A stretch of 64,000 bases of DNA, from contig CAYSDY010000002.1 in assembly GCA_964429995.1 (NCBI GenBank), positions 6,019-70,018 on the forward strand, read 5' to 3'. The notes beneath the pieces are model-generated. The model made no database searches, had not been told where the DNA came from, and saw only the letters and a program-made list of their open reading frames with translations. Each line of letters begins with the position of its first letter. The first letter of the stretch is position 1. This DNA comes from an uncultured Methanosarcinales archaeon. Lineage in GTDB: Archaea > Nanobdellota > Nanobdellia > Woesearchaeales > UBA583. Below are positions 5,885 to 64,000 of this stretch, in pieces. The translations under genes were made by a program, and so were the position numbers.

Positions 5885-6094
5885 CTTTAAACTTTTTTCT
5901 TAATTTGTTTATAAAACTTGAATAAATTTTGCTATTAATATGTTGTTAGTGTTACTTAATGTTTTAAAAATTGATTTTTTTGACTATTAAATGTAGGTTT
6001 AATATTTATATTTTATGAAATCTATTTATTATTTAAAATAATCTAATTACTTACAACATCATTATTATCTTGTTATACATAAGTTATAGAAAAA

Positions 6095-6102
6095 TTTATA
6101 AT
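6095..6102 (+). promoter_or_regulatory. BRE/TATA-like element aaaaaTTTATAAT. The TATA begins exactly 29 nt upstream of the ATG of pilin-FGE paralog 1.
   Basis: The same aaaaatttataa motif sits at the same 29-nt spacing upstream of the paralogs at 9594 (TATA 9565-9572) and 63285 (63256-63263). This spacing implies leaderless or near-leaderless transcripts. Confidence 0.45.
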
Positions 6103-6123
6103 AAATAAATTTCAGTAATTGTT

Positions 6124-8486: not shown

Positions 8487-9545
8487 TTAGTCTATCTTAA
8501 ATAGTTCAATTGATTCAATCTTTTTACCATATTTAATATTTAATATTTCCTTGAATTTTTCTATTTCTTCTTTTTCCTCAAAAATAAGTGTTATAAAGTA
8601 TTCTTGTGAATTTAGGTTTTTAATGGCATTTATGATTGATCTTGATTGTTTAAAAAATGCTGATATATCTTCTGATTCGCCTGCATTAAGATACAAAAAT
8701 TTTATTATTCCTGCAAATTGCATAAAACCTAATTTGTTGTAATTTAATACGGGCGTAAAATTTTCTATTACTCCGCATGATTTCATTTTTTCTATTCTGT
8801 ATTTTACAGTGTCAGATGATATGTTTAATTTTTCACCGATTTCTTTATACTGTATTCTTGCATTCTCTTCTAACATGTTTAGTATTTCCTTGTTTTTTTC
8901 ATCAAGTTCAAAGTTTTGATTATCTTTTATTATTGTAAAATCTTTTTTGAATTCACAATCATTCTTAAATATGTCATTATGTATTTTTTGTTGATTATCA
9001 GTGTTTATTTCCTGAGATGATATTATTGTGTAATATTTTGTAAGTACACTTGAGCATGAATCTAATATTTCTGCAAGTTTTTTTTTAAACTCATTAATAT
9101 TTTCAGCATAAAGCCTTATTACAAGATCCCATCCTGCCTGAGATTTTATAAACCATATGAGGTATTTGTTGCCTATCTTTTGTTTTATGAACTTTTCTTT
9201 TGAGATTTCATCATCAAGATTCAATTTTAACAATATTATGTATTCTTTGTAATTTAGGATGTCTTCGTTTATTTTTGGAATGAATTTTACTATAAGGTTC
9301 TCTTTTATTAACCTTTTTATACGGTAATTTATTATTTCACGACCAAGATCTATCTCTTTAGATATACTTGCAGAGCTTTGTCTTCCATCTTCAAGCAGTT
9401 TTTGTAAAATAAGTACATCTTTTTTTGTAAGAATGGAGAACTGTTCCTTTTTGTCCATATTATGATATATAGTGAGGTTGTAATTTATAAATCTTGTTTT
9501 TATTTGAGTTGTTGTGTAATGTGCATTTGTTATATTATTGTTCAC
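8487..9545 (-). CDS. tandem-duplicated Lrp/AsnC-family transcriptional regulator (two HTH+RAM modules in one 352-aa chain)
   Basis: The first module is DVLILQKLLEDGRQSSASISKEIDLGREIINYRIKRLIKENLI plus a RAM-like region. The second is EILNMLEENARIQYKEIGEKLNISSDTVKYRIEKMKSCGVI plus a RAM-like region. A likelier start is the Met at 9458 (MDKKEQF...). The gene is divergent from pilin-FGE paralog 2. Confidence 0.75.
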   Translation of the reverse strand: MNNNITNAHYTTTQIKTRFINYNLTIYHNMDKKEQFSILTKKDVLILQKLLEDGRQSSASISKEIDLGREIINYRIKRLIKENLIVKFIPKINEDILNYKEYIILLKLNLDDEISKEKFIKQKIGNKYLIWFIKSQAGWDLVIRLYAENINEFKKKLAEILDSCSSVLTKYYTIISSQEINTDNQQKIHNDIFKNDCEFKKDFTIIKDNQNFELDEKNKEILNMLEENARIQYKEIGEKLNISSDTVKYRIEKMKSCGVIENFTPVLNYNKLGFMQFAGIIKFLYLNAGESEDISAFFKQSRSIINAIKNLNSQEYFITLIFEEKEEIEKFKEILNIKYGKKIESIELFKID

Positions 9546-9593: not shown

Positions 9594-11036
9594 ATGTATT
9601 CTGGTAATAAAAATATAAAATGCATATCTCCAATTATAGCAACAGCCTTATTGTTAGTTGTAGCTGTAGTTGCAGTTGTTGGTTTTTCATTTTGGTTTGA
9701 GGATTATTCATCTAAAATTTCAAGTAATGTTGAAACATACTCCTCACAAAAGGGTTCTTCTGTTAATATAGAAGCTGTTGTTGGAGATAGTTTGTATATT
9801 AAAAATTCTGGTGATAATGTTACTGTAAAAAATGTTAAAGTTAATGGATTTGATTGTTTGAATAATGATACTGTTTATCAGGAAGGATTTTTTGAAATAA
9901 ATATTAGTTTGTGTATTGATAATCTTAATGTTTCTAATCCTGATGTGCTAATAGTTACAGATAAAGGATTGGTTGAAAAGAAAATATATGTAAAGAATGT
10001 TGTAAATAGTGTTTCTTATGATTGTGTTTTAAATGGTCAAACTATTTTGAATGGTTCTTCTTCTGTTTTTTATAAATATGACAAACCTTACAATAGTGTA
10101 TCAGGGTGTTCTGTAATGTCACAGGAAAGGACATGTAATAATGGAAATCTAAATGGTACATCTGATTATACTTATACAGAGTGTAACGATAGTTTGGCCC
10201 CAAGCCAAGGTGGTGAGTGGTTATTGGTTTTAGGTAATGATGATTTGGGAACAGAAGATTTTTATGTTATGAAATATGAAGCAAAATTTGCAAATATTGC
10301 AAGTAAAACATTTGATGAAGCAAGTGGAGTTTGGCAATATGATAATGCTGGTGGAGATTTGAGTATAACATCAGGCCCTTTAAATGAACCAATAGCATAT
10401 ATTAGTCAAGAGCAAGCTGGTCTTGCATGTTCTTTATTGGGAGATGGTTATAAATTGATAAATCGTTCTGAATGGGTGACTATTGGAAGAGAAATTGAAA
10501 ATATTGCTTATAATTGGGATAGTGGTCAAGTTTATTCAGGTAAATTATATACAGGTCATAGTGATAGAGGTCCCTCTTATGCCTTGCCTGTTTCTGATGT
10601 TGATGATGGTTATGTAGGTACAGGTAATTCTGCACTCTCTGGTATTGATCAAAGAAGAACATTAAAATTGCGTAGTGATGAATTAATATGGGATTTATCA
10701 GGTAATTTATGGGAATGGAATAGTGATGTATTTGAAACAAATGAAGAAAGTTCGTTAGGAACATCTCCTATTGATTGGATGCAATGGACAGAGATAGATT
10801 CATCATACGATTACTTAAAACCTTATAACACATCGCTTACATCTACTAACGGAATAGGACGAGTTAAACCAACATCATCTAATGCTATTCCTAGTGGTAC
10901 AGTTCATGCTTTTGCTTCAGGAGGTGATTGGAATCGTGTTAGTGATACAGGATTTTTTGCATTGTTCTTAGGTTATTCTCCAACAATTTCAATGTTTATG
11001 TCTGATACTACTTTTCGTTGTACATATAATCCATAA
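9594..11036 (+). CDS. pilin-FGE fusion protein, paralog 2 (480 aa)
   Basis: N-terminus KNIKC|ISPIIATALLLVVAVVAVVGFSFWF. The C-terminal domain has FYVMKYEAKF, PIAYISQEQAGLACSLLGDGYKLINRSEWV, GNLWEWNSDVF and TFRCTYNP. The six-frame ORF from 9462 is an upstream read-through; the start is set at the Met that matches the paralogs. Confidence 0.7.
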   Translation: MYSGNKNIKCISPIIATALLLVVAVVAVVGFSFWFEDYSSKISSNVETYSSQKGSSVNIEAVVGDSLYIKNSGDNVTVKNVKVNGFDCLNNDTVYQEGFFEINISLCIDNLNVSNPDVLIVTDKGLVEKKIYVKNVVNSVSYDCVLNGQTILNGSSSVFYKYDKPYNSVSGCSVMSQERTCNNGNLNGTSDYTYTECNDSLAPSQGGEWLLVLGNDDLGTEDFYVMKYEAKFANIASKTFDEASGVWQYDNAGGDLSITSGPLNEPIAYISQEQAGLACSLLGDGYKLINRSEWVTIGREIENIAYNWDSGQVYSGKLYTGHSDRGPSYALPVSDVDDGYVGTGNSALSGIDQRRTLKLRSDELIWDLSGNLWEWNSDVFETNEESSLGTSPIDWMQWTEIDSSYDYLKPYNTSLTSTNGIGRVKPTSSNAIPSGTVHAFASGGDWNRVSDTGFFALFLGYSPTISMFMSDTTFRCTYNP

Positions 11037-11104: not shown

Positions 11105-11299
11105 TTATTCTTTATCGCTATTTTTTTTAAGTCTTGTGATGTATCCCACTACAGCATTCTTTAATTTTTTTGAAGGAATTACTGCGTACTTTTCTACTAT
11201 TGTCTTATTCTGACTGAAATCTTCACCAAATTCGGATTCACCTTTTGTATAGATTTTTTTTCCAGAACTTTTAATGAATCTACTTTTAATTCTTCCCAT
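11105..11299 (-). CDS. rps17e: 30S ribosomal protein S17e
   Basis: MGRIKSRFIKSSGKKIY...FGEDFSQNKTIVEKYAVIPSKKLKNAVVGYITRLKK follows the S17e pattern: MG+IR..FIKR...F..DF..NK..V......SKK.RN.IAGYITR. Confidence 0.75.
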   Translation of the reverse strand: MGRIKSRFIKSSGKKIYTKGESEFGEDFSQNKTIVEKYAVIPSKKLKNAVVGYITRLKKNSDKE

Positions 11300-39989: not shown

Positions 39990-40328
39990 ATGTCTGATGA
40001 TAAAAAAAAAAAAATAGATGATTTGAAGAATCAACAACCAGCAAAAGTTAAATTTCCTTCAGGTGATCAATTTATAGGTATAGTTGAGAAGAGGCTTGGA
40101 GGTTCAAGAATGAATATTAAGAGTGTTGATGGTAGAGAGATCCTTGCAAGAGTTCCTGGAAGAGCGAAAAAATTTCTTTGGATAAGAGAAGGAGATATCG
40201 TTCTTCTTGAGCCATGGGAGTTTGATAAAACCAAAGCAGATCTGTTTTATAAATATAAACCAAATGAAATCAAAGCACTTGAAAGAAAGGGACTTTTAGG
40301 TAATCTTGAAAATATAGAAGAATTTTAA
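39990..40328 (+). CDS. eif1a: translation initiation factor aIF-1A (eIF1A)
   Basis: S1-like fold: GIVEKRLGGSRMNIKSVDGREILARVPGRAKKFLWIREGDIVLLEPWEFD. Confidence 0.85.
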   Translation: MSDDKKKKIDDLKNQQPAKVKFPSGDQFIGIVEKRLGGSRMNIKSVDGREILARVPGRAKKFLWIREGDIVLLEPWEFDKTKADLFYKYKPNEIKALERKGLLGNLENIEEF

Positions 40329-40894: not shown

Positions 40895-40974
40895 GTAAGG
40901 ATAGCGAAGTGGTCAAACGCGACCGACTCAAGATCGGTTCCTATGGTTCGAGGGTTCGAGTCCCTTTCCTTACA
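40895..40974 (+). tRNA. tRNA-Leu (anticodon CAA), ~80 nt with an extended variable region
   Basis: The acceptor GTAAGGA/TCCTTAC is perfect. The anticodon stem is ACCGA/TCGGT with loop CU-CAA-GA. The T-arm is GAGGG-TTCGAGT-CCCTT. The variable region is 11 nt. Confidence 0.75.
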
Positions 40975-41633: not shown

Positions 41634-42314
41634 ATGTCTAATTTTTTTAAAAAATCTAAAAAAGGATTATGTGGTGTACTTTTAGGTTTAGGTGCAAGTA
41701 TTATTCCTTTATCTGTTGCAGATGCTGCTTTATATTTGAAGATTGATAAGGTTATTCCATACGCTAGCATTATGGAAAGTGCTAGAAATAAGGCTTTTGA
41801 TTTATCAACTGATCCTAGTATTAATGTTGTTGCATCTTCTCCAGATGGTAATTTTGTTTTAGATGATGTATTAGTTGATCAGATATTTAAAAAATATAAA
41901 GAAGGTATTGACTTGTTATTGTTAAACAGACATGAAGAACCTGTTGGAATGATTACTTTTGAAGATTATGGTTCAAAAGGTACAAAAATACATGAGGGAT
42001 TATTAGATAAAAAAAAAATAAATTCTAGATTTATGTTCTCAATTGTTCCTTTAAAGGATCAGTTTTCATCTTTTATGCTTAAGCTTAATAGTGATTATGA
42101 ATCAAAAATAAGATCTCAAAGGGTTGATAATGTTTATCATATTTCAATTTATGATAGTAAGGATAGTAAATTGTCTGCTAATGAAAAAATAGATGAATGT
42201 GTTCTTGCTGTTGTTTCTGATGGCAAAGTTAGAAAAAATCTTGTAGAAGGTGCACAATTAAGGATTGATAAAGCAGATTTTGGTTTTTATCAGGGAAGAT
42301 ATGCTAATCAATAA
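41634..42314 (+). CDS. secreted hypothetical protein (226 aa)
   Basis: Signal peptide KKGLCGVLLGLGASIIPLSVADA. Confidence 0.45.
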   Translation: MSNFFKKSKKGLCGVLLGLGASIIPLSVADAALYLKIDKVIPYASIMESARNKAFDLSTDPSINVVASSPDGNFVLDDVLVDQIFKKYKEGIDLLLLNRHEEPVGMITFEDYGSKGTKIHEGLLDKKKINSRFMFSIVPLKDQFSSFMLKLNSDYESKIRSQRVDNVYHISIYDSKDSKLSANEKIDECVLAVVSDGKVRKNLVEGAQLRIDKADFGFYQGRYANQ

Positions 42315-43337: not shown

Positions 43338-43856
43338 ATGGTTAATAAAAAAATAAAAAACATGATAATATCATCTGCAATATTTGCAAGTATTGGTTTG
43401 TTTTCTTGCAATGCTGATGCAAATTATTATTTTAAGACAAGTATTGTTAAAGAACCAGTTAAAATGTTTGATGATATTGTTGCATTAAAATCAGATAATG
43501 GGAAAATTGAGGGAATAATTTCAAAAGAAATATTAAATAAAAGAGGAGCTGTTGATTTAAACGGATTATTTATTGATAGTAATCCTTTGTTAGAAGAGGT
43601 TTTGATGTATTATGAAAATCGTATAAAAAAGTATAATGAATTAATAAATATGGGTTTGTCTGATCAAATAAAAGGTTATGATGGATATCTTCTTTTTAAA
43701 AAATGTGATCCTGCTGATTCATACAAAAGTAGTGGATATGAGATTTTAGGAATATTTTCAGGTGTTTCTATAATGGGAGGTGAATATCCTAAAAAATCAG
43801 TTTTGATTGTTGCTGATGATATGTTAGAAAAACTGACTAGAAAATATGATAGATAA
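43338..43856 (+). CDS. lipoprotein (172 aa), hypothetical
   Basis: Lipobox-like signal SAIFASIGLFSC|NADA. Confidence 0.45.
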   Translation: MVNKKIKNMIISSAIFASIGLFSCNADANYYFKTSIVKEPVKMFDDIVALKSDNGKIEGIISKEILNKRGAVDLNGLFIDSNPLLEEVLMYYENRIKKYNELINMGLSDQIKGYDGYLLFKKCDPADSYKSSGYEILGIFSGVSIMGGEYPKKSVLIVADDMLEKLTRKYDR

Positions 43857-44022
43857 TAGTACATTTGATACAGGAATAAAAAAACTTAAGATTAAATAAA
43901 AGTAATTTTTAAAAAAATTACAAAATGTTTATCTAATTGAATTTTAAAATTCTCTATGTATTTCTTTTTGAGTTTAAATCGGACAAAGCTATATTTTGAC
44001 GTTCCGTTCAATTGAGGGATGT

Positions 44023-44788
44023 TCATTCTCGGTTGTTTAAATAGGCTGTTGAGAGGGGAGCTAAGTGACTAAAATAGGGTTTTTCTTCAATTCTAACAGT
44101 CAAAAAAGATCTTGCGTAAAACGTCAATGTAACCGATCGTTTAGGGGAATTTTGGTGTAAACAGGTAGCTAACAGGTGAACTTTCGGATTTTTGATTTTG
44201 TAAGCAAGTCTCAAATAAACACTCAATTTTTTGTATTGTTTGCTGAGTGTACTTTTCACCTCTGTTTGTAATAAACACATACTGCGATTTTTGGTTTAGT
44301 TTTTGCAGTTCTTTTTTAACTTTTTGTGAGAGTATTACTATTCTGTCTTTTTTTTCTTTTGCTCGCTTTAAGTGAATGGTGTTTCTGTTAAAGTCAATGT
44401 CTTGCCATTTAAGGTTAATGATCTTACTGATTCTTAGCCCTGCCGAATATCTTGTTTGAAAAATTAATCGATGGTTGATGTTCGTAGTTACCTTGATTAA
44501 ATTATCGATCTCTTCTTTTGAGAGTATTATCGGGAGCTTTTTTTCTCTCTTGACATTTTGCAGGTTATCAAGAACTTTTTGTATTTTAGCAGATTATTTT
44601 TTCATGATATTAAGGTAGAATTTTATTGTAAAGCCTGCTGATCGAATGGTTTCGTCAGATTTGTCTTTTTCTATGAGTGAAAATAAGTAGTCTCTTGGCT
44701 GTTTCTTTGATACAATAAATCTGTTAATATGATGTAAATAATTATTGATCGTCTTTTGTGAATATCCTTTAAGTTTGCATTCTTGCAT
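44023..44788 (-). pseudogene. XerC/D-phage-type tyrosine recombinase (integrase), inactivated by an in-frame TAA and a downstream frameshift
   Basis: The N-terminal SAM-like domain (44594-44788) is KLKGYSQKTINNYLHHINRFIV. In the same frame after TAA at 44594-44596 comes the catalytic domain LPIILSKEEIDNLIK...RYSAGLRISKIINLKWQDIDF (with the first catalytic Arg), running to a stop at 44141. The C-terminal segment ...HLLATCLHQ...TLTFYARS (HxxR/Tyr region) is in another frame (44023-44280). Confidence 0.7.
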
Positions 44789-44995
44789 GACCTGTGCATC
44801 TATTTAAGTTTCAAAACTTGTTTTCCAAGCATAAAATGAGGAGATTTCAGAAATATATAAAAATTCGTATTTTGCAATAAAAATAAATATAAAACGTAGT
44901 ATTATTACGTTTAATAGTTGTTATATTCAATTTGTCCTTCTAAAAAAAAGAAGTAAAAATGGGGGCTTCTAAAAAAAAGGGATAAATTCTAAAAC

Positions 44996-45140
44996 TTTGC
45001 ATTTGGCATAGTTGCACTAAATTTTAGTCCTTCGAGGAATATAACAAAGATTTAGAGGTTTCGTTCGGTTGCACCTTATTACATCCAAATTTTTACTACG
45101 CAAAAACTTCGTTAAATTCCGATGTTAGTTGCAATTATTT
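44996..45140. repeat. iteron-like array of three GTTGCA(C/A) motifs at 57-60 bp spacing (45011, 45068, 45128), with interspersed G-runs
   Basis: tagTTGCACtaaatttt / cggTTGCACcttatta / tagTTGCAAttattttt. It sits in the non-coding stretch between the integrase remnant and the 45300 gene. Confidence 0.3.
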
Positions 45141-45299
45141 TTAAGGGCTAAAAAATTGAAGGGGACAATTTTGTTATTTAAGGGCGAGAAAACTATTTCG
45201 GAAACTTTCCTGAAAAATCAACATAAATTTTATATATTTCAATGTTTTAATAACAATTGTAAGTTAAAAAACTGAACAACTTTTAGGGGGAAAATAAAA

Positions 45300-45620
45300 A
45301 TGACACAAGCTTTAGAACAAATGTTAAAAGACACTTTTGTGCCAAACATTGCACAAAATAGAATGTATCAAACAATAGATACATACACAAGCGGAACAAT
45401 AGCACTATACACACCGCCAGTAAAAATATTTGATTTTCCAAATATTGGAGCGACAGTTCATATTCATGGAAGTGCAGATAGAAACGCTCTTTATGGTGGA
45501 GATGTAAGACCTATTGGAAGTAATGAACCATTTAGAAGGTTAAATTCTTATGAATCCGCAATGGCTGATTATTATCTGACACAAGCCGGAATCAAACCAA
45601 TTGAACCTAAAAAATGGTAA
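45300..45620 (+). CDS. hypothetical protein (106 aa), first gene of the island cassette
   Basis: A strong bacterial-style RBS (tttAGGGGGaaaataaaaATG). Codon usage and GC content differ from the host genes. Confidence 0.5.
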   Translation: MTQALEQMLKDTFVPNIAQNRMYQTIDTYTSGTIALYTPPVKIFDFPNIGATVHIHGSADRNALYGGDVRPIGSNEPFRRLNSYESAMADYYLTQAGIKPIEPKKW

Positions 45621-45644
45621 TTACATTTTTTATTTTTTCTTATT

Positions 45645-45917
45645 TTGGAGGGAATGTTTATGGTATTTGAAATCGACCCAAATAAACTAAAAAAAGATTT
45701 AATTTATGTTTATGAATGCTACTTGTCAAGCAATACTGACCTAAATAAAATAGCATATGAAAAAGCTCAAGAAATGGATGGTCTTTGGAGTGGAGATTTC
45801 TTATTTAAAAAATCTATAGAACAAGCTATTGGTGGGCTTAGATATATCTATCTTGAACCCAAGTTACCAAAATTAAAAGCTAATAAAATACTTTTAGATT
45901 TAAAAAATGAAAAATAG
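45645..45917 (+). CDS. hypothetical protein (90 aa). The probable true start is the ATG at 45660 (MFMVFEI...), preceded by GGAGGG.
   Basis: An SD-like ttGGAGGGaatgtttATG, 25-40 nt after the previous stop. Confidence 0.45.
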   Translation: MEGMFMVFEIDPNKLKKDLIYVYECYLSSNTDLNKIAYEKAQEMDGLWSGDFLFKKSIEQAIGGLRYIYLEPKLPKLKANKILLDLKNEK

Positions 45918-45951
45918 TATTGAAGTTAAATTAAAATGAGAGGTAAAGTCC

Positions 45952-47022
45952 ATGCATTCACTTGATTCTTTATTACAGGATGCTTCTTCTTTTATTAATT
46001 CAGAATTCAATTTACAATTAAGAAAATCGCAATTGAAACCTTATTCTTTTGAAAATTGGCAAGAATTTTGTCAAATTAATGGTTTTGATGTCAATAGTGA
46101 AGGTTTATATGTTCCTGTTTCTTATTCTGCTTATGTGAGAACTGATAGTAATGTTTTGGTTTCTAATCTTTTTCATGAGTTGTATGGTCATGGTTTATTT
46201 TGTGAACATTCCCAAATTGGAAAAAGACTGATTGAAATAATCCAAAATAGCGGTGATGAAAAAGGTTTTATGTTTGATGAAGTAAACCTCCAAGAACAAC
46301 CTCTTGGCTTAGCTAAGTATAATATTCATAATTACGAAGGTTTTGCTGTTTGGCTTGAAGCTTTGCTTTGTGAGGAAACCGATAATTATAAAGTTTGGCA
46401 ATTAAAAAGAGATAAGTTACCTGATGATTTTGTTTCTTTATTTGAATATTTTGAAGATGTAGAACAGAGATTATCTCGTTTTGGTTTTATGTCCCAGCTT
46501 GGTTTCCCTAAATTTTATAGTGATGATAAAGTTTTAGATGTTGCAAAAAGAGTGTACAGTTCTGCTTTTGAGAATATTGATTTTGTTGTTCTTTATGGTT
46601 CTCAGAAATCTGAAAGTGATATTGATTTGTTTATTATTTCAAACAATCCTTCTTCAAATTATTTTAATGGTTGGATTGATATTTATGAATTGAATAGAGA
46701 AGAGTTTAATCAATTATCTAATAATTTCGATATCAGTGTAACTGATCCATTGTTTACAGGTAGATTAATTTATGGGAATAGAAATTCTTTTGAACAATTG
46801 AGAAACAAAATTTTGAATCTACCTATAACTCAAGAAGCAATTAATCATAATAATTCAGAAGCACAAAAGCAGAAAAAATATTTACCACATCTCTCTGATA
46901 CGGATAAACGAAGAAAAGATTGTTTATCATATATTGATAGTTTTTCTCAAAATGCAGAGCAATTAAGTTTAGGTAACAAACCGTTAACATTAGCAAATCT
47001 TAAAGATATTTATACAAAATAG
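45952..47022 (+). CDS. 356-aa protein with a polymerase-β-type nucleotidyltransferase motif (hGS...SDIDL) in its C-terminal half, and an N-terminal domain bearing HELYGHG
   Basis: IDFVVLYGSQKSESDIDLFIISNN resembles the GS-x(n)-DhDh NTase signature, although the spacer is short. The N-terminal FHELYGHGLFCEH is not a canonical HEXXH. SD is GAGAGGtaaagtccATG. Confidence 0.55.
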   Translation: MHSLDSLLQDASSFINSEFNLQLRKSQLKPYSFENWQEFCQINGFDVNSEGLYVPVSYSAYVRTDSNVLVSNLFHELYGHGLFCEHSQIGKRLIEIIQNSGDEKGFMFDEVNLQEQPLGLAKYNIHNYEGFAVWLEALLCEETDNYKVWQLKRDKLPDDFVSLFEYFEDVEQRLSRFGFMSQLGFPKFYSDDKVLDVAKRVYSSAFENIDFVVLYGSQKSESDIDLFIISNNPSSNYFNGWIDIYELNREEFNQLSNNFDISVTDPLFTGRLIYGNRNSFEQLRNKILNLPITQEAINHNNSEAQKQKKYLPHLSDTDKRRKDCLSYIDSFSQNAEQLSLGNKPLTLANLKDIYTK

Positions 47023-47105
47023 TTTCCCCGTCTTGATTTTTTTATTAGATGGTACTTTGTGCTTCATAAAAATAAAATTGTCCTTGGATAATTGTCCTTT
47101 ATGTG

Positions 47106-47381
47106 TCACTTCGTTCTTTGGATAGTACGCCCTTGAAAAAAACTCTTCGGGATTTTTTGTTTAGCAAAATTTAATAAAATAACATTATTATCGTCGTTAA
47201 AATCAATAATTTCTGGCGTAAAACTAGTGCCGTTTAGTGCTAATAGGGTGTCCCTTTCACACAAGTAAAAATTAAATCTGGAATTTCTATGAATTGTTTT
47301 TTTAACAAATAATTCAGAGCTAATCCTATATAATTCTACTAGATTCCTTTTTCCACCAGTTAGTTCTGTTAAATATTGCAT
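47106..47381 (-). pseudogene. fragmentary ORFs (47106-47381 and out-of-frame continuations up to ~47740 on the minus strand), probably a degraded gene
   Basis: Adjacent minus-strand reading frames (...DYNVENIKKRIVGPTHSKESF...; ...KKNCGSDSFKRVILESDFDNILKIGKIITERLNSIK...*; MQYLTELTGGKRNLVELYR...) are broken by stops and frame changes. Confidence 0.3.
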
Positions 47382-48436
47382 TTTTGTTTAATACTTTCTA
47401 TAGATGCTTTAATATCTTCATTGTTAAGTACGGAGATTTTATAGAGTTTAGCCTTTCAGTTATGATTTTGCCAATTTTTAAGATGTTATCAAAATCAGAT
47501 TCCAAAATGACTCTTTTGAATGAGTCGGACCCACAATTCTTTTTTTGATGTTTTCTACATTATAGTCTAAGATTACAAAAAGAGACACTTTGCTTAAATC
47601 AAGATACTCTGGCAATAAATGATTACTTTTAATTACAATACTAGTTCTTTCATCATATGTTCTTTTGATTGCAGAGTTTACTGATTTACAAACTAATCTT
47701 GTCTGTTCCTTAAAAAAAGTTTCAAGATTATCGGAATTTTCAGGTTATGATTATGATATTCAAGCTGGAAGATCTTTAATTAAAAATTCTAAAATAGTTA
47801 TTCCCGAATCTTATAAATATAAAACGAATTTGGAGATGTTATTTGGCATTTCTATGAACACGCACCTTTTGATAGGGGTCATTCGGTTAGAATTTATTTG
47901 TTGTTGATATTTGATATCAATCAATTTACTAAAGCAAAAAAGTTTAATTCTAAATCAAAGGGAGTTATACAAGGATTAAATAATTATTTATACAAGTTTA
48001 AAGATTCAGATAATAAACCGAGTGTATTAGTTGGAATTGTTAAAATTCTAAGATAAAACTTTTGTCCTTTGATTCTTTGTCTTTGAGAGTCGCAAGGCTC
48101 CAACGAAGGACTTCCCGATTTTAAAAACTCTCTTCACTTCGTTCCGAGCCACGCCTTGCAGGCTTTTCTCCTTTCAGTAGTCTGAACGCATAACACCGAT
48201 TAAAACAGAAATTTTTGTAGAATTTTTCCAAATTTTCTCCATTCCATTCCGAAAACTTGTTTTAATCGTGAATGTTAAAATCATAGAATGACTGCTCTTT
48301 TCACTGTTCGTTTTAAAAAAATAGCCTTATTTGAACATTCACTTCTTAACATATACAGGATGAACGGAGCTATATTTTAATAATATTTATAAATCCTTAA
48401 TTTACATCTTATTTTATCCATGTTGGGTATTTAAAA

Positions 48437-50925: not shown

Positions 50926-51696
50926 ATGGTAAGAAAAATAAAAAAAAATCAAAAAAGTTTCATTTTATTTACAATTACAATATTAATGTTGCCTTTTGTA
51001 TTTTATGAAAGTTTTGCTTGTGATGATTTATATAGTTTGATTGATAAATACTACTCAGTATCAAAACAAGAAAATTATGATGAATACATACAATTGATGG
51101 ATACAGAGTATATATATAAAAATATTGCTGATAGCGAAAGTTATGAAAATTATGTTAAATCAGCCTTTGAGGTTTATGATACAAAAGATTATGATATAAA
51201 ATATCATAAATGTGTGAAAATTTTAGATGATTCAGAAGCTCTTGTTTTTTTTAACATGAAATCAAGTATTAATTCTGATGGAAAAACATATAATTTACAA
51301 AGAGATTATGTTGCATCATTAAGAGATTCAAACGGTTTTAAAATTCAGTTTGTAATGGATCTTGAAACATTTTCATTCCATCAAAACATGATGTATTCTT
51401 TAATGTACATAAATCAGACAAAAGACATTCTAGAAAAGGATATTAAGCACATTGAAGAATATGAAAAATATAATGAAAACATACAATTGATAGAAGAAAA
51501 ACAAGATTCTTCATATACATTTTTATGGTTGATATTAATTTTGATATTGGTCTTATCTTTACTTGTGATTAAAAAATACAGAAAAAGGATTCTTAAAAAA
51601 ATTAGGAATGGTACAAAAAAAGATGAAAACAATCAAATAGAAAAGCCTAATAACAAATCAGTACCATTAAAAAATAAAAAAGGAAAAACAATGTGA
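50926..51696 (+). CDS. type-I membrane protein (256 aa) with an N-terminal signal and a C-terminal TM anchor followed by a basic tail
   Basis: N-terminus FILFTITILMLPFVFYESFA. TM helix FLWLILILILVLSLLVIKKYRKR. Confidence 0.5.
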   Translation: MVRKIKKNQKSFILFTITILMLPFVFYESFACDDLYSLIDKYYSVSKQENYDEYIQLMDTEYIYKNIADSESYENYVKSAFEVYDTKDYDIKYHKCVKILDDSEALVFFNMKSSINSDGKTYNLQRDYVASLRDSNGFKIQFVMDLETFSFHQNMMYSLMYINQTKDILEKDIKHIEEYEKYNENIQLIEEKQDSSYTFLWLILILILVLSLLVIKKYRKRILKKIRNGTKKDENNQIEKPNNKSVPLKNKKGKTM

Positions 51697-52394
51697 TAAT
51701 GTTTTTATTCCTTTTTTGTAGTAACATTTATAAAATAATAAATTGTAGTATCTCTACAATGACAAAAAACAAAATGTTATCTAATGTGGTTGCTACTGGA
51801 TTATCTGGTTTGCTTTTTTTAGGATCTGCTGATAAGGCTATGGGAGCCAATTACTTTTTTGGTGAGCTTTCAAAAGGTGATAGGAGTGAAAATATGATTG
51901 CTATTGAAAAATCAGGGGAAATTTATGGTCTTGTTTCACAAAATTTGTCAGAATATATGGATGCTGTAACACTTGCACCAGGTTTATCATTAAAAGAAGT
52001 TAGTAAAAATGATGTTTTAAGTTTTTTTAACAAAAGAGATAATCTTGAATCAGAACTAAGATCATTAGGTTATGATTCAGATTTGCCAGATGAAGGAGTT
52101 ATTTCTGTTAAAGATGGTTGCATTGTTTTAGCATATGATAAAGCTGGATATGAGCCAGTTGCATCTTTTTTTGGAGCTAAATTAAGTCTTGTTGAGAAAG
52201 ATTCAGAAAAAATGTCTCCTAAAAGATATTTTTTTATTGATTCAGATAAAGATACACTTAAAAGTTTTGTTGAAACATATAAAAAAGAAAATAAAACAAG
52301 TGAATCAACAATTGACAAATTTAAACAAACACAAGGAAATTTTAATGCTAATCTTTATTTAAGTCATCTTATTGCAATAGGCTTAAGATATTAA
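51693..52394 (+). CDS. secreted hypothetical protein. The likelier start is the Met at 51759 (MTKNKMLSNVVATGLSGLLFLGSADKAMG).
   Basis: An ORF with a signal peptide after the internal Met. Confidence 0.45.
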   Translation: MIMFLFLFCSNIYKIINCSISTMTKNKMLSNVVATGLSGLLFLGSADKAMGANYFFGELSKGDRSENMIAIEKSGEIYGLVSQNLSEYMDAVTLAPGLSLKEVSKNDVLSFFNKRDNLESELRSLGYDSDLPDEGVISVKDGCIVLAYDKAGYEPVASFFGAKLSLVEKDSEKMSPKRYFFIDSDKDTLKSFVETYKKENKTSESTIDKFKQTQGNFNANLYLSHLIAIGLRY

Positions 52395-52464
52395 TTTAAT
52401 TTTTTATTATTTGAATGATATTATTTTTAGTAATATTTATGAACAGAGAAGTTGTTACTGGTGT

Positions 52465-52992
52465 ATGGTACAAAATATGTATAGTAAAACAGTAAAGGGT
52501 ATTGTTACAGCAGGAGCATTTGCTCTTGGAGTGTTATATGGTGGCAATTTAGCAGAGGCTAGAGAAGTTTATTTAAAGGCATCTAGTGAAGTTGATAAAT
52601 TATCTTTAGAATATGTTGTAAAGGCAAATAAAGGGAAAACAATAGTTGGTGCTTTAAATACTCCTTTACCAGAGGGTAGTTTAGAGAAGGGTTTAGTGAT
52701 AGTAAAAGCTAAACCAGGAGAAGTAGAAAGTTTTAGTAAGAAACTTGAAGGTTTATTGAGTAAAAGTGAAGCTATAGGAGTTCATACAGATATGATGAAT
52801 GCTTATAGTGGAGGTAATCCTGATGAATTAATTTATGTTTTAGGTGGAACAAGTAATGCTGATAAGAAACCAACTACAAAGTTATATGTTACATTTGAAG
52901 AAGAGAAAACAACCTTAAAAGAGAAAGGAGGCGGTGAAGGAGGCTCTGGCGGTTCTGGAGGCTCTGGCGGAGGCAATGGAGGGAGTTATTAA
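52465..52992 (+). CDS. small secreted protein A1 (176 aa) with a (GGS)n-rich C-terminal tail. It is the tandem paralog of 54535-55062.
   Basis: MVQNMYSKTVKGIVTAGAFALGVLYGG... ends ...KEKGGGEGGSGGSGGSGGGNGGSY. It is ~97% nucleotide-identical to copy A2. The six-frame ORF starts earlier at 52411, but homology with A2 begins at MVQNMY. Confidence 0.55.
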   Translation: MVQNMYSKTVKGIVTAGAFALGVLYGGNLAEAREVYLKASSEVDKLSLEYVVKANKGKTIVGALNTPLPEGSLEKGLVIVKAKPGEVESFSKKLEGLLSKSEAIGVHTDMMNAYSGGNPDELIYVLGGTSNADKKPTTKLYVTFEEEKTTLKEKGGGEGGSGGSGGSGGGNGGSY

Positions 52993-53053: not shown

Positions 53054-54391
53054 ATGAAAATTATTATAAAACTTTTTTTTTATTTTTATTTATTTTTTTT
53101 TTGTGTAGATATTGTTCGATCTTACACTTATAGTATTGGAGGTTCTTCTTTTGATGGGATAGGAGTTAGTGCTAATATTGCTTTTAACAGTAATGGAGGA
53201 GATTTTACTGTTGTATCCAATAATTTATTTTTTTATGGTATTACGAATGCATGTGTTATTCCAACTTGTGGATCTTCTGTGGATTCTTGTTTTATTTTTG
53301 TATTAAATTCAAATTATAGAGATATATTTTGGTATTCTGATATTAGAGAAGATTATATAGGGAACTCTAGAAAATATAAATTTCCTAATGAACTAAAAAA
53401 CGAAAACAAATGTTTACTTACATATCAAAACAAAATGTTAAGTTCTAATTTGGAGCCTTTTTCTATATACATAAACTCTCCTCGTCCAGACACTTATAAA
53501 GGCATCACCTACCCACCAGGCAGATACACATTTTCAAACATTGGAAGTGTCATTCCAAATTGGGAGAGCTATTATCTTGCAAACTACTATTACATGAAAG
53601 CAAACTTAAAATTTGAATTGTTAAATGATGCTGTTGTTGTTTCATCTCAAACAAAACAGATAGTTGCAAAAGATACTCCAATTAGTATTGAGAGTGACTT
53701 AACAAATTTTATCAATAGCAAAAAAACAGACATAGAAAACCTATTAAAATCAGGAGTTAATCCAGATAAGATAAAAATGAGAATAGTAGGAACTCCTACA
53801 GATGCAAAATGTCCAGCAGTTGGGATTTTAGAGCAATTTATTGACATTAAAACTGAGGTTGACAAGCTTGTTAAAACACAGGATTGTACTATAAGTTATC
53901 AAAGTGGAGCAATTATTTCTAATGCAGATGAGGCACTTTACAGCCCATCAGAAATGGATGTTTTGGTTGTAGGAACCTTATTAAAGCATCATGATAATGG
54001 TGAAGAAGAAATTATTAAACATTTTTATCCATCATCAAGCCTTGTTAATACTTATGAGGATTACAATTACATAATTGCTAAAAAAGTTGCTGTTCCTGTT
54101 GATTTAGAAATGCAAATAAGACATGAGTTAGATAGAATGAAGGATGAAAACATAGATTATGGAATTTTTTCAGCAGTAATAATAGGAGAACCTATTGATG
54201 ATGAATGTGTAAAAGGAAAAACAGGTTTTGAGCATGAAATAATCAGCAATTACATAATTCCAAAACCAGAAGAAAAACCAACTTATGATGATTATGAACC
54301 TTATACAAATCCTATAAACAAGCAAAGATATATTGTTGATGGTGCGTGTGATTCTAAAATTACATTTAATAAGGAACAACAAAGGATTTAA
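53054..54391 (+). CDS. secreted protein B1 (445 aa), truncated paralog of the 1043-aa protein B2
   Basis: Signal MKIIIKLFFYFYLFFFCVDIVRS. Residues ~150-443 are nearly identical to B2 (53501-54385 vs 55559-56443, with 100% stretches of at least 219 nt). It stops at ...NKEQQRI where B2 continues. Confidence 0.6.
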   Translation: MKIIIKLFFYFYLFFFCVDIVRSYTYSIGGSSFDGIGVSANIAFNSNGGDFTVVSNNLFFYGITNACVIPTCGSSVDSCFIFVLNSNYRDIFWYSDIREDYIGNSRKYKFPNELKNENKCLLTYQNKMLSSNLEPFSIYINSPRPDTYKGITYPPGRYTFSNIGSVIPNWESYYLANYYYMKANLKFELLNDAVVVSSQTKQIVAKDTPISIESDLTNFINSKKTDIENLLKSGVNPDKIKMRIVGTPTDAKCPAVGILEQFIDIKTEVDKLVKTQDCTISYQSGAIISNADEALYSPSEMDVLVVGTLLKHHDNGEEEIIKHFYPSSSLVNTYEDYNYIIAKKVAVPVDLEMQIRHELDRMKDENIDYGIFSAVIIGEPIDDECVKGKTGFEHEIISNYIIPKPEEKPTYDDYEPYTNPINKQRYIVDGACDSKITFNKEQQRI

Positions 54392-54534
54392 TGGTGTATT
54401 TGTCAATAAGTAAATAATATCTAATTTTTTTTAAAGTGTTTTATAATGAATTTGGTACTATTGTTGTTTATTTAATATTCCTAATTTTTCCGATTTTTAG
54501 TAATATTTATAAATAAAGAAGTTGTTACTGGTGT

Positions 54535-55062
54535 ATGGTACAAAATATGTATAGTAAAACAGTAAAGGGTATTGTTACAGCAGGAGCATTTGCTCTTGGA
54601 GTGTTATATGGTGGCAATTTAGCAGAGGCTAGAGAAGTTTATTTAAAGGCATCTAGTGAAGTTGATAAATTATCTTTAGAATATGTTGTAAAGGCAAATA
54701 AAGGGAAAACAATAGTTGGTGCTTTAAATACTCCTTTGCCAGAGGGTAGTTTAGAGAAAGGTTTAGTGATAGTAAAAGCTAAGCCAGGAGAAGTAGAAAG
54801 TTTTAGTAAGAAACTTGAAGGTTTATTGGGTAAAAGTGAAGCTATAGGAGTTCATACAGATATGATGAATGCTTACAGTGGAGGTAATCCAGATGAAGTA
54901 ATTTATGTTTTAGGTGGAAAAAGTAATGCTGATGAAAAACCAACTACAAAGTTATATGTTACATTTGAAGAAGAAAAAACAACCCTAAAAGAGAAAGGAG
55001 GCGGTGAAGGAGGCTCTGGCGGTTCTGGTGGTTCTGGCGGAGGAGATGGAGGCCATTTGTAA
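54535..55062 (+). CDS. small secreted protein A2 (175 aa) with a GGS-rich tail
   Basis: See A1. The offset between copies is 2070 bp. Confidence 0.55.
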   Translation: MVQNMYSKTVKGIVTAGAFALGVLYGGNLAEAREVYLKASSEVDKLSLEYVVKANKGKTIVGALNTPLPEGSLEKGLVIVKAKPGEVESFSKKLEGLLGKSEAIGVHTDMMNAYSGGNPDEVIYVLGGKSNADEKPTTKLYVTFEEEKTTLKEKGGGEGGSGGSGGSGGGDGGHL

Positions 55063-55144: not shown

Positions 55145-58100
55145 ATGAGATTTTGTATGTTTGGTTTCTTTTTTTTTGTTTTGTTGTCATCTTTTGTTTT
55201 TTCGTATAGTTATCATAGTACTTCAGTATTTGATTCTGTAATGTTGAAAACAAATTTTGTTAGTGGGAATGCTTTTGTTTCTATAGAAGGATCGATGTTT
55301 TTATCTGTTAATTCTTTAACTATACCTTCCTGTGAAAATTGGGACAGATGTTTTATATTTTCTTTTACTTCTAATTCTAATGCTATATTTTGGTATTCTG
55401 ATATTAGGGAGGATTATGTGGCAAACTTTAGAAAATATAAGTTTCCTAATGAACTAAAAAACGAAAATAGATGTTTACTTACATATCAAAATAACATGAT
55501 AGGTTCTAATTTAGAATCTTTTTCGTTTTATTTACCTAATTCTGTTCCTGCAAGTAATGGCATCACCTACCCACCAGGCAGATACACATTTTCAAACATT
55601 GGAAGTGTTATTCCAAATTGGGAGAGTTATTATCTTGAAAACTACTATTACATGAAAGCAGACTTGAAATTTGAATTGTTAAATGATGCTGTTGTTGTTT
55701 CATCTCAAACAAAACAGATAGTTGCAAAAGATACTCCAATTAGTATTGAGAGTGACTTAACAAATTTTATCAATAGCAAAAAAACAGACATAGAAAACCT
55801 ATTAAAATCAGGAGTTAATCCAGATAAGATAAAAATGAGAATAGTAGGAACTCCTACAGATGCAAAATGTCCAGCAGTTGGGATTTTAGAGCAATTTATT
55901 GACATTAAAACTGAGGTTGACAAGCTTGTTAAAACACAGGATTGTACTATAAGTTATCAAAGTGGAGCAATTATTTCTAATGCAGATGAGGCACTTTACA
56001 GCCCATCAGAAATGGATGTTTTGGTTGTAGGAACCTTATTAAAGCATCATGATAATGGTGAAGAAGAAATTATTAAACATTTTTATCCATCATCAAGCCT
56101 TGTTAATACTTATGAGGATTACAATTACATAATTGCTAAAAAAGTTGCTGTTCCTGTTGATTTAGAAATGCAAATAAGACATGAGTTAGATAGAATGAAG
56201 GATGAAAACATAGATTATGGAACTTTTTCAGCAGTAATATTAGGAGAACCTATTGATGATGAATGTGTAAATGGGAAAACAGGTTTTGAGCATGAAATAA
56301 TTAGCAATTATATAATTCCAAAACCAGAAGAAAAACCAACTTATGGTGATTATGAACCTTATACAAATCCTATAAATAAGCAAAGATATATTGTTGATGG
56401 TGCGTGTGATTCTAAAATTACATTTAATAAAGATCAGCAAAAGATTTATGCAACAAGTGATTATGATTATGTTAAAATTCGTTTTATAGGAGATAATAAT
56501 TATAGAAAAACAACAGAAAAGGTTTACTCAATGTCTATTGATGATGATGAGTTTTTTGGTGAATATATTGATGTTGAAGTATATGATTTTAGAATTAAAA
56601 GATTTTTGTTTTTCAAAATTGGTCGTGAAATTAAAGCTACATACAAATGTAGACTTAAATATGATGGATATTTCCAGTTTGATAAAACAAATGATGTAAA
56701 CAAGGTTGTTTGTAAGGAAGGAGATGAATTAGAATGTAATTATATAGATGAAAATAAAGATGAAGAACCTATTGCTGTTATTGATGATTCTGCAAAGATT
56801 AATGTTTATCAGAATGGTGCTTTTATAAAGCAGGATAGCATAACTTATAAGGATCTTTTGCTTAAAGGACATAAGGTTAGAATGTATCATAGGATTTCTG
56901 ATGCATCATTGTTTGCAAGTGATACAATGTCAATATTAAAGAGCTTAACTCTTGAAAAGCATTTGACAAAATCTGGTGGCGTTACAAATGTTAGGGTTAA
57001 AATAAAAAATATACCCGTATCTTTAAGGAACAAACTTTATGTTTATCAGATAATATCAAAAAAGGATGTTTTATCTTTTAACAGTATAAGATTTATAGAT
57101 AATTCAGATGGAAAAAGGATGGTTCTTGATAAGGATCCTGTAATTGGTTGGTATTTTGAAGATACTGATTCAGATCTTGAGGTTGAATATTCTGTTGATG
57201 GTGATAATGAGGGTGGGGATCTTATAATTACTACTGAGCCTATATTATTTTTTGAAGGTGATCTTGTTGTAAATTACAGAAATGATGATTGTAATCCTGG
57301 TGAGGCACAGGTTTTTGAAATTGATTCTTTGGAAAATTCAAACGTATATCTGCCTTTTAGCGGTAGAAATTATAAAATATGTATTGCACATGTTACAGAT
57401 GATCTTATTGCAAATGCAAATGAGCCATTTATAAATATATTTAATTATGCAAATGCTGGCAAGGTTTTTTCTTCTTATTCGCAAAAAGCTGTAGTTTCTG
57501 CAATAAATTCAACTCCTTTATACTGGAGAGTTAAAATTGCAAAGGAAAATCCATTAGGAACTTATACATGCCTTGGTTCTTTGCTTAATTCCCAAGAAAC
57601 TCCTTCTACTTTTGGAGATTGTGCATTTAGCGATAACAGGATATGGATAAGTCTTGTTTATGATGTATTTCCACCTGTAAGTTCTATTAAAATACCATAT
57701 ATTGCACATACTATAAAATTTAAGATAGAATCTTCTGATTTACATTCTGGAGTGCATTCTCAATATGTATGTGTACTTGATGATGATAATAATTGTGATT
57801 TTAGGCAATATTATGGTGAGGATGTTTTACTTACTTGTCCTGATGAATGGGAATGTAATAAAATAGTACGTTTTTTTGCAATTGATAATGAAGGTAACAT
57901 AGAGGATGTAAAAGAGGAAAATATTACACTTATACAGGAAGGTTCTGCATGTCAGGCTGATTGTACTGCCAAACCTTTTCCTAATAGGTATATAAGTACA
58001 TGTAGAAATATGAATGGATGTAAATATGCAAGTTTAAATGGTGATGATGGAGCAAAGATTGCAGATTCATGTCATTATTCTGTTCTTGATACATGGGTTT

Positions 58101-63175: not shown

Positions 63176-63255
63176 AAAAAACTTACCAATACTTCTAAAT
63201 TATATTTGTTTTAATGTTACATATTGTTTGTTATTATTAATGAATTTTACAAAAA

Positions 63256-63263
63256 TTTATAAT
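63256..63263 (+). promoter_or_regulatory. BRE/TATA-like aaaaaTTTATAAT, 29 nt upstream of the ATG of pilin-FGE paralog 3
   Basis: It matches the motif and spacing seen at 6095 and 9565. Confidence 0.45.
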
Positions 63264-63284
63264 AATGATTTTTAATTATTTGTT

Positions 63285-64000
63285 ATGATAACAATTTATT
63301 ATTCTAAAAAGTGCATATCACCAGTTGTAGCTGTTGCTTTATTATTAGTTGTAGCAGTTATAGCAGTTGTAGGTTTTCAAAACTGGTTTGATACGTATTC
63401 AACAAATATTTTAAGTGATGTTGAGAGTTCATCAGCAAATGATGTTAGAACCAGTAGAATAGAAACAATTGTTGGAAACAGTTTGTACATAAAAAATGAT
63501 TATGATAATTTAACAATTAAAGATATAAAAGTCAATGGTTACAGTTGTTTTGATAGTGAAACAAATTATTCTAAAGGAATATTAGAAATCAATATTACGG
63601 ATTGTATAGTAAATTTGAATGTTAGTAATCCTGATGTTGTAGTTGTAACAGATAAAGGCTTGATTGAGAAGATGGTTTATGTTAAAAATGTTAATGTTAC
63701 ACAAACAGGTGCACCAACAACAGTGGGATTAAGTTGTTCTTTAAATGGTACTACTATTGCACATGATTCATCTTATACATTTTACGAATATGATAAACCA
63801 TATAATAATCTAGCAGGATGCTTAGCGATTTCACAATTAAGAACATGTAATAATGGAACGTTGAATGGGTCAGATAACTATAGTTATGCAATATGTAATG
63901 ATAGCTTAGCACCAAGCGAAGGTGGAGAATGGGTACTTGTGTTTGCTAATTTAGATTTAGGTGTTAACAATGATTTTTATGTAATGAAATATGAAGCAAA
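63285..64000 (+). CDS. pilin-FGE fusion protein, paralog 3 (3'-truncated by the window edge)
   Basis: MITIYYSKKC|ISPVVAVALLLVVAVIAVVGFQNWF. The first ~130 aa are near-identical to paralog 1, including a ~125-nt stretch of 100% nucleotide identity. The sequence runs into the FYVMKYEAK block at the window end. Confidence 0.7.
   Translation, partial: MITIYYSKKCISPVVAVALLLVVAVIAVVGFQNWFDTYSTNILSDVESSSANDVRTSRIETIVGNSLYIKNDYDNLTIKDIKVNGYSCFDSETNYSKGILEINITDCIVNLNVSNPDVVVVTDKGLIEKMVYVKNVNVTQTGAPTTVGLSCSLNGTTIAHDSSYTFYEYDKPYNNLAGCLAISQLRTCNNGTLNGSDNYSYAICNDSLAPSEGGEWVLVFANLDLGVNNDFYVMKYEA

Follow-up and report, generated by a model that had tools for sequence, protein, structure and literature searches.

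In integrons, the cassette site attC is an imperfect palindrome of about 57–141 nt. It contains the R'' (..AAC) and R' (GTT..) cores as well as paired L boxes, and it has a variable loop and extrahelical bases. The integrases (IntIs) are defined by an extra domain, which is thought to be needed if folded attC hairpins are to be read; attC clusters that have no integrase are termed CALINs. Integrative mobile elements exploiting Xer (IMEX) are integrated at dif by the Xer recombinase of the host and are flanked by dif and a second dif-like site. In archaea, integrons have been reported with IntIs carrying the extra domain, and most arrays are integrase-less CALINs (Ghaly et al. 2022, PMC9668308); among these are genomes of Woesearchaeales and Pacearchaeales with 2–4 attCs in which no IntI gene was detected (PMC9668308, main text, Data S1/S3). 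For Sulfolobales, a dif near xerA has been predicted whose flank is conserved on one side (Cortez et al. 2010, PMC2958812). No link of attC sites to XerA-type enzymes was found in the literature searched. Here, we analyze an island of about 4.4 kb in a 64,000-nt stretch of DNA (the window) from an uncultured archaeon, labelled Methanosarcinales and placed by GTDB in Woesearchaeales (GenBank assembly GCA_964429995.1, contig CAYSDY010000002.1, positions 6,019 to 70,018). A model given the letters and open reading frames (ORFs) of the window had described the island, at 43987–48378, as a foreign, fossil integrative element (hereafter the sequence-only reading).

The island is probably what remains of a chromosomal, integron-like platform for gene cassettes that has decayed in a DPANN archaeon. 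The intact layout is found in related DPANN archaea, in which a XerA-type gene of about 270 aa points away from a palindromic site and GTTA, followed by cassettes that each end in an imperfect palindrome of about 90–150 nt. The wider proposal, that DPANN archaea run an integron-like cassette system in which a XerA-type enzyme without the IntI extra domain would recombine a dif-like palindrome with attC-like hairpins, is possible, and we hold it somewhat short of probable. Of the sequence-only reading, the part that stands is a fossil element of site-specific recombination with a dead recombinase; the architecture is that of a cassette array and not that of a prophage or an integrative and conjugative element, and the limits then set for the island differ from those of the structures defined here by no more than about 240 bp on the left and about 100 bp on the right. 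These structures are as follows, with positions in the window.

43987..43997, plus strand: left 11-mer AGCTATATTTT, then GACGT and the 8-mer TCCGTTCA (44003-44010)
43998..44224, no strand: tail between the left repeat and the recombinase breakpoint
44225..44832, minus strand: truncated pseudogene of a XerA-type (integron-integrase-like) tyrosine recombinase, residues ~1-203 of ~271
44851..44875, minus strand: promoter-like box of the recombinase gene, reading GCAAAATACGAATTTTTATATATTT on the minus strand
44889..44923, no strand: attI/dif-like site, with the palindrome ATAAAACGTA-gtattat-TACGTTTAAT (44889-44915), AGTT and the GTTA junction (44920-44923)
44921..45124, plus strand: cassette 1, ORF-less and mostly attC-like site a
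45038-45127, plus strand: attC-like site a, G|TT at 45124|45125, covariance-model match 45038-45136
45125..47158, plus strand: conserved body of cassette 2, with leader (45125-45299), three genes and a conserved 3' stretch (47023-47158)
45300-45620, plus strand: 106-aa gene of cassette 2
45645-45917, plus strand: 90-aa gene of cassette 2
45952-47022, plus strand: 356-aa gene of cassette 2
47159..48126, no strand: decayed filler with no ORF >91 aa, standing where a related locus (L187) has an attC-like site after the operon
48127..48277, plus strand: attC-like site b with a 5' extension, core 48187-48277, G|TT at 48274|48275
48361..48378, plus strand: right site, TGAACGGA (48361-48368) overlapping AGCTATATTTT (48368-48378)

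The minus-strand tyrosine recombinase with an in-frame TAA at 44594-44596, as described in the sequence-only reading, is confirmed; the Pfam match (PF00589, E=6.6e-17) covers profile positions 3-113 of 172 only. The pseudogene carries three lesions, namely a 1-nt deletion near codon 6, the TAA stop and the loss of the 3' third, which encoded HxxR, His and the catalytic Tyr. Residues 9-203 of an intact homologue (P0001) match at 87% by tblastn at 44809-44225, and nucleotide homology to intact recombinase genes, at about 88–90%, ends abruptly at ~44225 (residue ~203). The Tyr region was previously thought to be shifted into another frame, which is refuted by this break and by the tail: in any frame, 43987-44224 aligns to the family C-terminus with 12 bits, under the random median of 13.5 bits, and the C-terminus was found neither in any tail frame nor elsewhere in the 64-kb window. 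By blastn and tblastx against the collected related loci, the tail (43857-44230) gave nothing useful.

The remnant has 363 homologues, of which the best intact ones are 88–95% identical and the named ones are almost all from Woesearchaeota or Nanoarchaeota (best intact: Woesearchaeota/Nanoarchaeia). Intact recombinases of the family have about 265–275 aa, and those beside arrays likewise about 265 aa. Viral contigs yielded distant recombinases only. A scan of species-representative genomes returned, among the matches listed, only genes of at most 50% identity, which were bacterial (Candidate Phyla Radiation, Bacteroidota) with a few archaeal ones, and the loci of these distant recombinases (1.14 Mb) were used as negative controls. 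Other truncated remnants of the family are present in L111 (10001-10447, N-terminus lost) and L156 (6085-6219 and 10001-10402, fragments beside two hairpins); decay of the XerA-type gene seems to be recurrent. In one lineage (L097/L098), a tRNA-like sequence was seen by eye on the opposite strand, ~80 bp 3' of the recombinase stop codon.

By protein sequence, profile and structure, the recombinase is best matched by archaeal XerA. The top NCBIfam model of the representative P0001 is XerA_Arch (NF040815), which aligns over the full model length with 219.4 bits, just under the equivalog cut-off of 220, and the best solved structure is XerA of P. abyssi (4a8e, E=3e-45). Against VchIntIA (2a3v), P0001 aligns in two stretches, with 19 residues opposite 65 of the IntI, and the IntI-specific additional domain (around patch III) is therefore absent. 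The alignment to TIGR02249 also falls into two stretches (194 bits, cut-off 265). The protein, of about 270 aa, thus differs from integron integrases, and IntegronFinder-type criteria would therefore call the arrays CALINs. Its C-terminus (…YTKVSNK..IKSPLD), however, resembles integron integrases and departs in this from archaeal XerA.

The palindrome of the window lies ~60–100 bp 5' of the recombinase gene. Across 13 related loci an 11-7-11 palindrome is conserved ~75–100 bp 5' of the recombinase start codon, with the family consensus TATTAARCGTA-N7-TACGYTTAATA, then ~4 nt and TAAC (GTTA on the cassette strand); dyad symmetry reaches 89% over 11 loci, and two positions co-vary. A profile of the site and its flank finds one site in the window (44881-44936, E=1e-11), the next matches having E>0.7, and this profile search found no second dif-like site in the 64 kb. 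With its 11-bp arms and short spacer the palindrome resembles the dif of archaeal XerA, although the spacer has 7 nt and not 6, and a polarized hairpin array and strain-variable DNA begin at its flank. Such a strong dif-like palindrome beside the gene is also not a known attI layout. Between palindrome and gene, the box AAAATGCGAAAT + TTTATATAT recurs at the same distance in 11 related loci, and the box at 44851-44875 would be the promoter of the recombinase gene.

Several comparisons are consistent with an insertion point at the GTTA beside the palindrome. L102 and L103 are 100% identical from GTTA through the recombinase gene and 3.6 kb beyond, and unrelated on the other side of GTTA. The contig of L098 begins at the GTTA junction, and the homology of a cassette has its boundary at G|TTAGTTGC. 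In addition, a number of large contigs stop shortly 5' of the recombinase gene, and the motif GTTAnnnnCAAT is found both at the junction next to the palindrome and at the hairpin 3' ends.

The hairpins were found by blastn of the non-coding DNA of the island against the collected related loci, in which similar elements of ~110–160 nt lie 5' of related recombinase genes. We call them attC-like by our own structural comparison and not by a score of the IntegronFinder attC model. The palindrome reads 5' ..TAACA..GATTAAAAG, a variable loop, and CTTTTAATC..(bulge)..TGTTA 3'; aligned copies have three parts, a 5' ..TAACAnnGATTAAAAG, a variable GC-rich loop, and ..CCAAATTTT..AAAACTTCTTTTAATCnnn(n)ATGTTA|nnnnCAAT 3'. 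They are 89–154 nt long and share a consensus stem of 17 bp with a 3-5-nt bulge on the 3' side. Intact copies fold well as single-stranded DNA (z -4.7 to -6.4). In 18 sequences, 91% of cells are paired, versus 79% in shuffles and ~40% in slid controls; AAC/GTT is invariant (18/18), and compensatory changes occur in 10/17 pairs, as counted on a model-fitted alignment.

In the window, the covariance model has two matches only, both in the island and both on the plus strand, with the recombinase gene on the minus strand. Site a scores 84 bits (R1) and 77 bits (R2) and is homologous to elements in L014, L013, L187 and L156. Site b (match 48187-48286) scores 83 bits (R1) and 74 bits (R2), folds as single-stranded DNA with z=-2.7 and is homologous to L108, L109, L156 and L187. 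In close-family loci the model finds 21 further sites in 12 loci, all of them (21/21) 5' of the recombinase gene and on the opposite strand (P~1e-14 per hit, ~1e-8 per locus), and it has 0 matches in the 1.14 Mb of distant-recombinase loci. The array of L107 has 6 sites spaced 0.3–2.3 kb with ORFs between them; that of L187 has 4 sites separating SurA_N-like, His_Phos_1 and three-gene cassettes. A second tyrosine recombinase is present in none of the array-bearing loci.

Some further observations concern the hairpins and their surroundings. The near-identical strains of L013 (1-8900) and L014 (1-620), at 99.9% identity, part ways within a hairpin that lies 0.8 kb upstream of the recombinase gene; past this point one strain has type I restriction-modification, GmrSD and RadC, and the other a dCMP deaminase gene. 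The motif TTGTCC[CT]T has 4/5 of its window copies in the island (44932, 47078, 47092, 48062), just after cassette starts or just before hairpins, and 47075-47151 looks like 48058-48150 cut short. A CRISPR or iteron array was considered for the GTTGCA repeats (45011, 45068 and 45128) and dropped, as they are parts of the attC-like element and the cassette start.

The same evidence can be weighed under another explanation, in which the hairpins are ordinary attC sites in a CALIN served in trans by a canonical IntI, located elsewhere or in other cells, and the XerA gene and the palindrome are the xerA/dif with which the host resolves chromosome dimers, with cassette arrays and other variable DNA accumulating beside them by chance. 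This would account for the grouping of the protein with XerA by NCBIfam and PDB, for the absent IntI-specific domain, for the dif architecture of an 11-bp inverted repeat with a short spacer, and it has precedents in the dif near xerA of Sulfolobales (PMC2958812) and in the Woesearchaeales CALINs without IntI on record (PMC9668308). It is at odds with the fixed side and orientation of 21/21 sites in 12 loci, with GTTAnnnnCAAT being common to palindrome junction and hairpin 3' ends, and with strain divergence that begins exactly at GTTA; moreover, array-bearing loci have no second recombinase gene, and the locus has no strand or skew switch, as a dif at the terminus might give. We regard this explanation as unlikely.

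The proposed integron-like platform agrees with known integrons in a recombinase gene that diverges from the cassette array, in a putative G|TT insertion junction adjoining the 5' end of the gene, and in hairpins built around AAC...GTT cores, whose stem co-varies, whose bulge is on the 3' side and whose loop is variable. Further likenesses are the cassettes of 0.3–2.3 kb, mostly co-oriented and some of them ORF-less, and the decayed integrases beside fixed arrays. It differs in that one cassette carries a three-gene operon and in that the window locus has no functional integrase (truncated at ~203, stop, frameshift). XerS/difSL and XerH/difH modules and IMEX also have a single recombinase, a site beside its gene and foreign or variable DNA accumulating there. 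In contrast to these, the variable DNA of the window lacks a second flanking site of the dif-like or pseudo-dif type, and the repeated sites are of the hairpin type and not copies of dif. An IMEX model of the island was rejected on the profile search, which gave no second dif-like site in the window.

Cassette 2 is delimited by comparison with related loci. The homology shared with L185 and L186 has a sharp start at 45125, precisely at the G|TTAGTTGCAAT that follows site a, and ends at ~47151; the operon leader is nearly identical to that of L185, and the 3' stretch past the stop codon is ~78% identical over 129 nt. In L187-L192 the operon module is homologous up to 47158, with 86% nucleotide identity, and there it lies between two attC-like sites in a larger array. 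This argues that the three-gene operon is a cassette. In the window, its own hairpin is missing after 47158, where ~1 kb without real ORFs is followed by site b. This filler (47159-48126) has no protein or DNA match to the collected related loci by blastn and tblastx but for one 39-nt hit.

In the proposed mechanism, strand exchange by the recombinase would take place at the G|TT of the docking site and that of a cassette hairpin, and cassettes would be inserted or excised by it in the manner of integron integrases. In the window the platform is dead, the recombinase gene being without its catalytic third in addition to the stop and the frameshift. Just two attC-like sites are left, cassette 1 is an ORF-less stub, and the operon of cassette 2 no longer has an attC of its own, with ~1 kb of junk after it.

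The 356-aa protein of the operon has ~160 archaeal homologues with 46–85% identity, and the named ones are almost all from Woesearchaeota or Nanoarchaeota. In its AlphaFold model (predicted local distance difference test 95), the C-terminal domain has an ANT(4')/HalB-like nucleotidyltransferase fold, and the N-terminal domain carries an invariant HExxGH motif. Searches of the three cassette proteins and the 91-aa ORF against Pfam, PADLOC, PHROGs and NCBIfam gave nothing beyond a weak Polbeta/HalB nucleotidyltransferase match of the 356-aa protein. Upstream of a TATA-like box, the leader at 45125-45228 shares ~85–90% identity with L185, L186 and L187. Two palindromes of the TTTCnGGAAA type lie next to each other in this leader, which could be an operator or a small RNA. 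On a 1.0-Mb Woesearchaeota contig (L181), the homologous operon is bracketed by direct repeats of ~75 nt (9110-9200 and 11140-11215), one of which is the 3' end of a 188-aa gene. That operon looks, from its repeats, as if it had been inserted by a different route, without attC-like sites.

The sequence-only reading had instead placed a self-contained element at the core AGCTATATTTT, with attL at 43987-44010 and attR at 48361-48378, followed by decay; its predicted empty site would read ...CGGACAAAGCTATATTTTAATAAT.... The exact copies it described are confirmed: AGCTATATTTT occurs exactly twice in the window (43987, 48368), and TCCGTTCA (44003) and its reverse complement TGAACGGA (48361) occur once each, each adjoining one 11-mer. 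Between the intervals that bound the island, such a repeat pair is unlikely by chance (P≈0.0013, 0/1336 control interval pairs), the left interval being what lies between the left host gene and the recombinase breakpoint, and the right one what lies between the last hairpin and the next start codon. However, this anchored test was designed after seeing the data, and window-wide the configuration (direct repeat of at least 11 nt with an inner inverted repeat of at least 8 nt) is at chance level, with 17 observed and ~14 expected. The 8-mer matches the palindrome arm TAAACGTA at 6/8 positions, but the repeats do not match the site profile of the family, and their arms would be 15-16 nt apart instead of 7.

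Like a classical tyrosine-integrase island, the region has a dead integrase at its edge, low coding density, and short direct repeats near its edges, and both coding density and GC skew fall between the two proposed sites. In related loci, the DNA 3' of the recombinase gene shows no conserved site, and the 240 bp that contain the left repeat, past the truncation, are unrelated to that gene. A public contig that ends at 48368 and the sole relative of the right-flank gene, which has no island, may be counted in favour of attL/attR sites, whereas the absence of a clean empty site, a cargo native to the phylum, an ordinary composition and the internal organization into cassettes and hairpins count against them. 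We consider this model quite improbable. The attL/attR interpretation of the repeats is thus not upheld, since they have no comparative support and the supported sites are the palindrome and the two attC-like hairpins; the repeats lie just outside the platform and would be at most scars of its arrival or truncation. The tRNA-Leu(CAA) that had been noted ~3 kb upstream is present at 40895-40974, but it has no link to any recombination site, and its suggested part in the element is not supported.

The public contig ends themselves, one at 48368 and two starts at 48391, were considered as evidence of excision and are given little weight, as the 22-nt gap between them is not a k-1 overlap and fits a coverage gap better. 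Public contig ends of the same strain cluster around the island (42914, 45139, 45360, 45647, 47104, 48368 and 48391), of which 45139 and 47104 coincide with, or come close to, hairpin a and the repeated stretch that precedes hairpins.

The composition of the island is weakly deviant and not significantly foreign. The rise in GC content claimed earlier is present but slight (29.6% versus 28.3% for the window), and 11% of the other 4.4-kb windows are equally or more GC-rich; the tetranucleotide distance is in the top 6% of the window and within its spread, and the GC skew is low but not extreme. Strong Shine-Dalgarno motifs had also been pointed out in the genes at 45300-47022, and G-rich, Shine-Dalgarno-like motifs are indeed present in 3/3 genes, 7-12 nt before the start, while of the ~60 remaining ORFs of the window only about 5 have one. 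These motifs are conserved in homologous archaeal operons and are therefore uninformative on bacterial origin. No sign of a bacterial or plasmid source is left: the homologues of the recombinase and the 356-aa protein are those of DPANN archaea, with Woesearchaeota and Nanoarchaeota predominating among the named ones.

Such an ordinary composition would also fit a fast-evolving DPANN genome without any element, in which a dying housekeeping recombinase, a conserved operon and junk lie side by side and the non-coding motifs in common have a regulatory role. Conservation of the operon is wide, and its neighbourhoods in L181 and L182 are ordinary. This explanation nevertheless has to reconcile hairpins that are strongly structured, covarying and strictly polarized in distribution, module boundaries on G|TT, and the operon between two hairpins in L187, and we hold it to be very improbable indeed.

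A number of points weigh against the cassette platform that we favour. The recombinase would be tied to the hairpins by position and orientation only, and it is without the domain that integron integrases need for reading extrahelical bases. The palindrome beside the gene could simply be a dif site; a dif role would not have to exclude a role in cassette exchange. The attC-like status of the hairpins stems from our own comparison, their covariation from an alignment fitted by the model, and site a folds poorly (z=+1.2). A three-gene cassette of 3.15 kb is large for an integron, and the operon copies of L181 and L182 are without attC-like sites nearby. Finally, no clean empty site was found: the 825-aa right-flank protein has no relatives in species-representative genomes, and the one metagenomic relative of its gene (70% identical) has other upstream genes and no island.

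The window as a whole is AT-rich (28.3% GC), with most genes on the plus strand and a strongly positive GC skew, and the closest named homologues of its proteins are from Woesearchaeota or Nanoarchaeota, by which the source would be a Woesearchaeota-like DPANN archaeon. An aIF-1A gene lies at 39990-40328 (Pfam eIF-1a). In an Rfam scan of the window, two tRNAs alone are above the gathering threshold, and the island has merely two sub-threshold matches at chance level. Identical sequence of the same strain is found in several public metagenome assemblies, and all same-strain contigs carry the island. Downstream of the island, a segmental duplication (52423-52982 versus 54493-55052, 96.6% nucleotide identity) is accompanied by a second duplicated stretch (53288-54390 versus 55349-56448, 94%), so that a gene block occurs twice. 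Paralogous copies are scattered in the window (6070-6842 versus 63231-64000 at 84%, the latter running off the window end, and 6144-7479 versus 9614-10925 at 69%). By eye, the genes flanking the island (43338-43856 and 51693-52394, also 41634-42314) look on both sides like one family of small secreted proteins or lipoproteins, and if so, the platform would sit within a cluster of paralogous surface proteins.

The window itself is of more modest interest, as a dead copy that fixes a conserved nucleotidyltransferase operon in place. The pattern of wider interest would be the XerA-type recombinase beside polarized attC-like arrays in related loci. Archaeal attC arrays have been reported almost entirely without integrases (PMC9668308). 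If a short XerA-type enzyme services such arrays, integron-finding software applies a definition that overlooks an entire class of platforms, and the fact that archaeal attC arrays nearly always score as CALINs without an integrase would be explained. The system would then be a possible evolutionary intermediate between Xer/dif and integrons, and the origin of integrons from Xer-like enzymes would become directly testable, given that protein, palindrome and hairpins are all defined. It would also provide a concrete mechanism of gene flow for the genome-reduced DPANN archaea.

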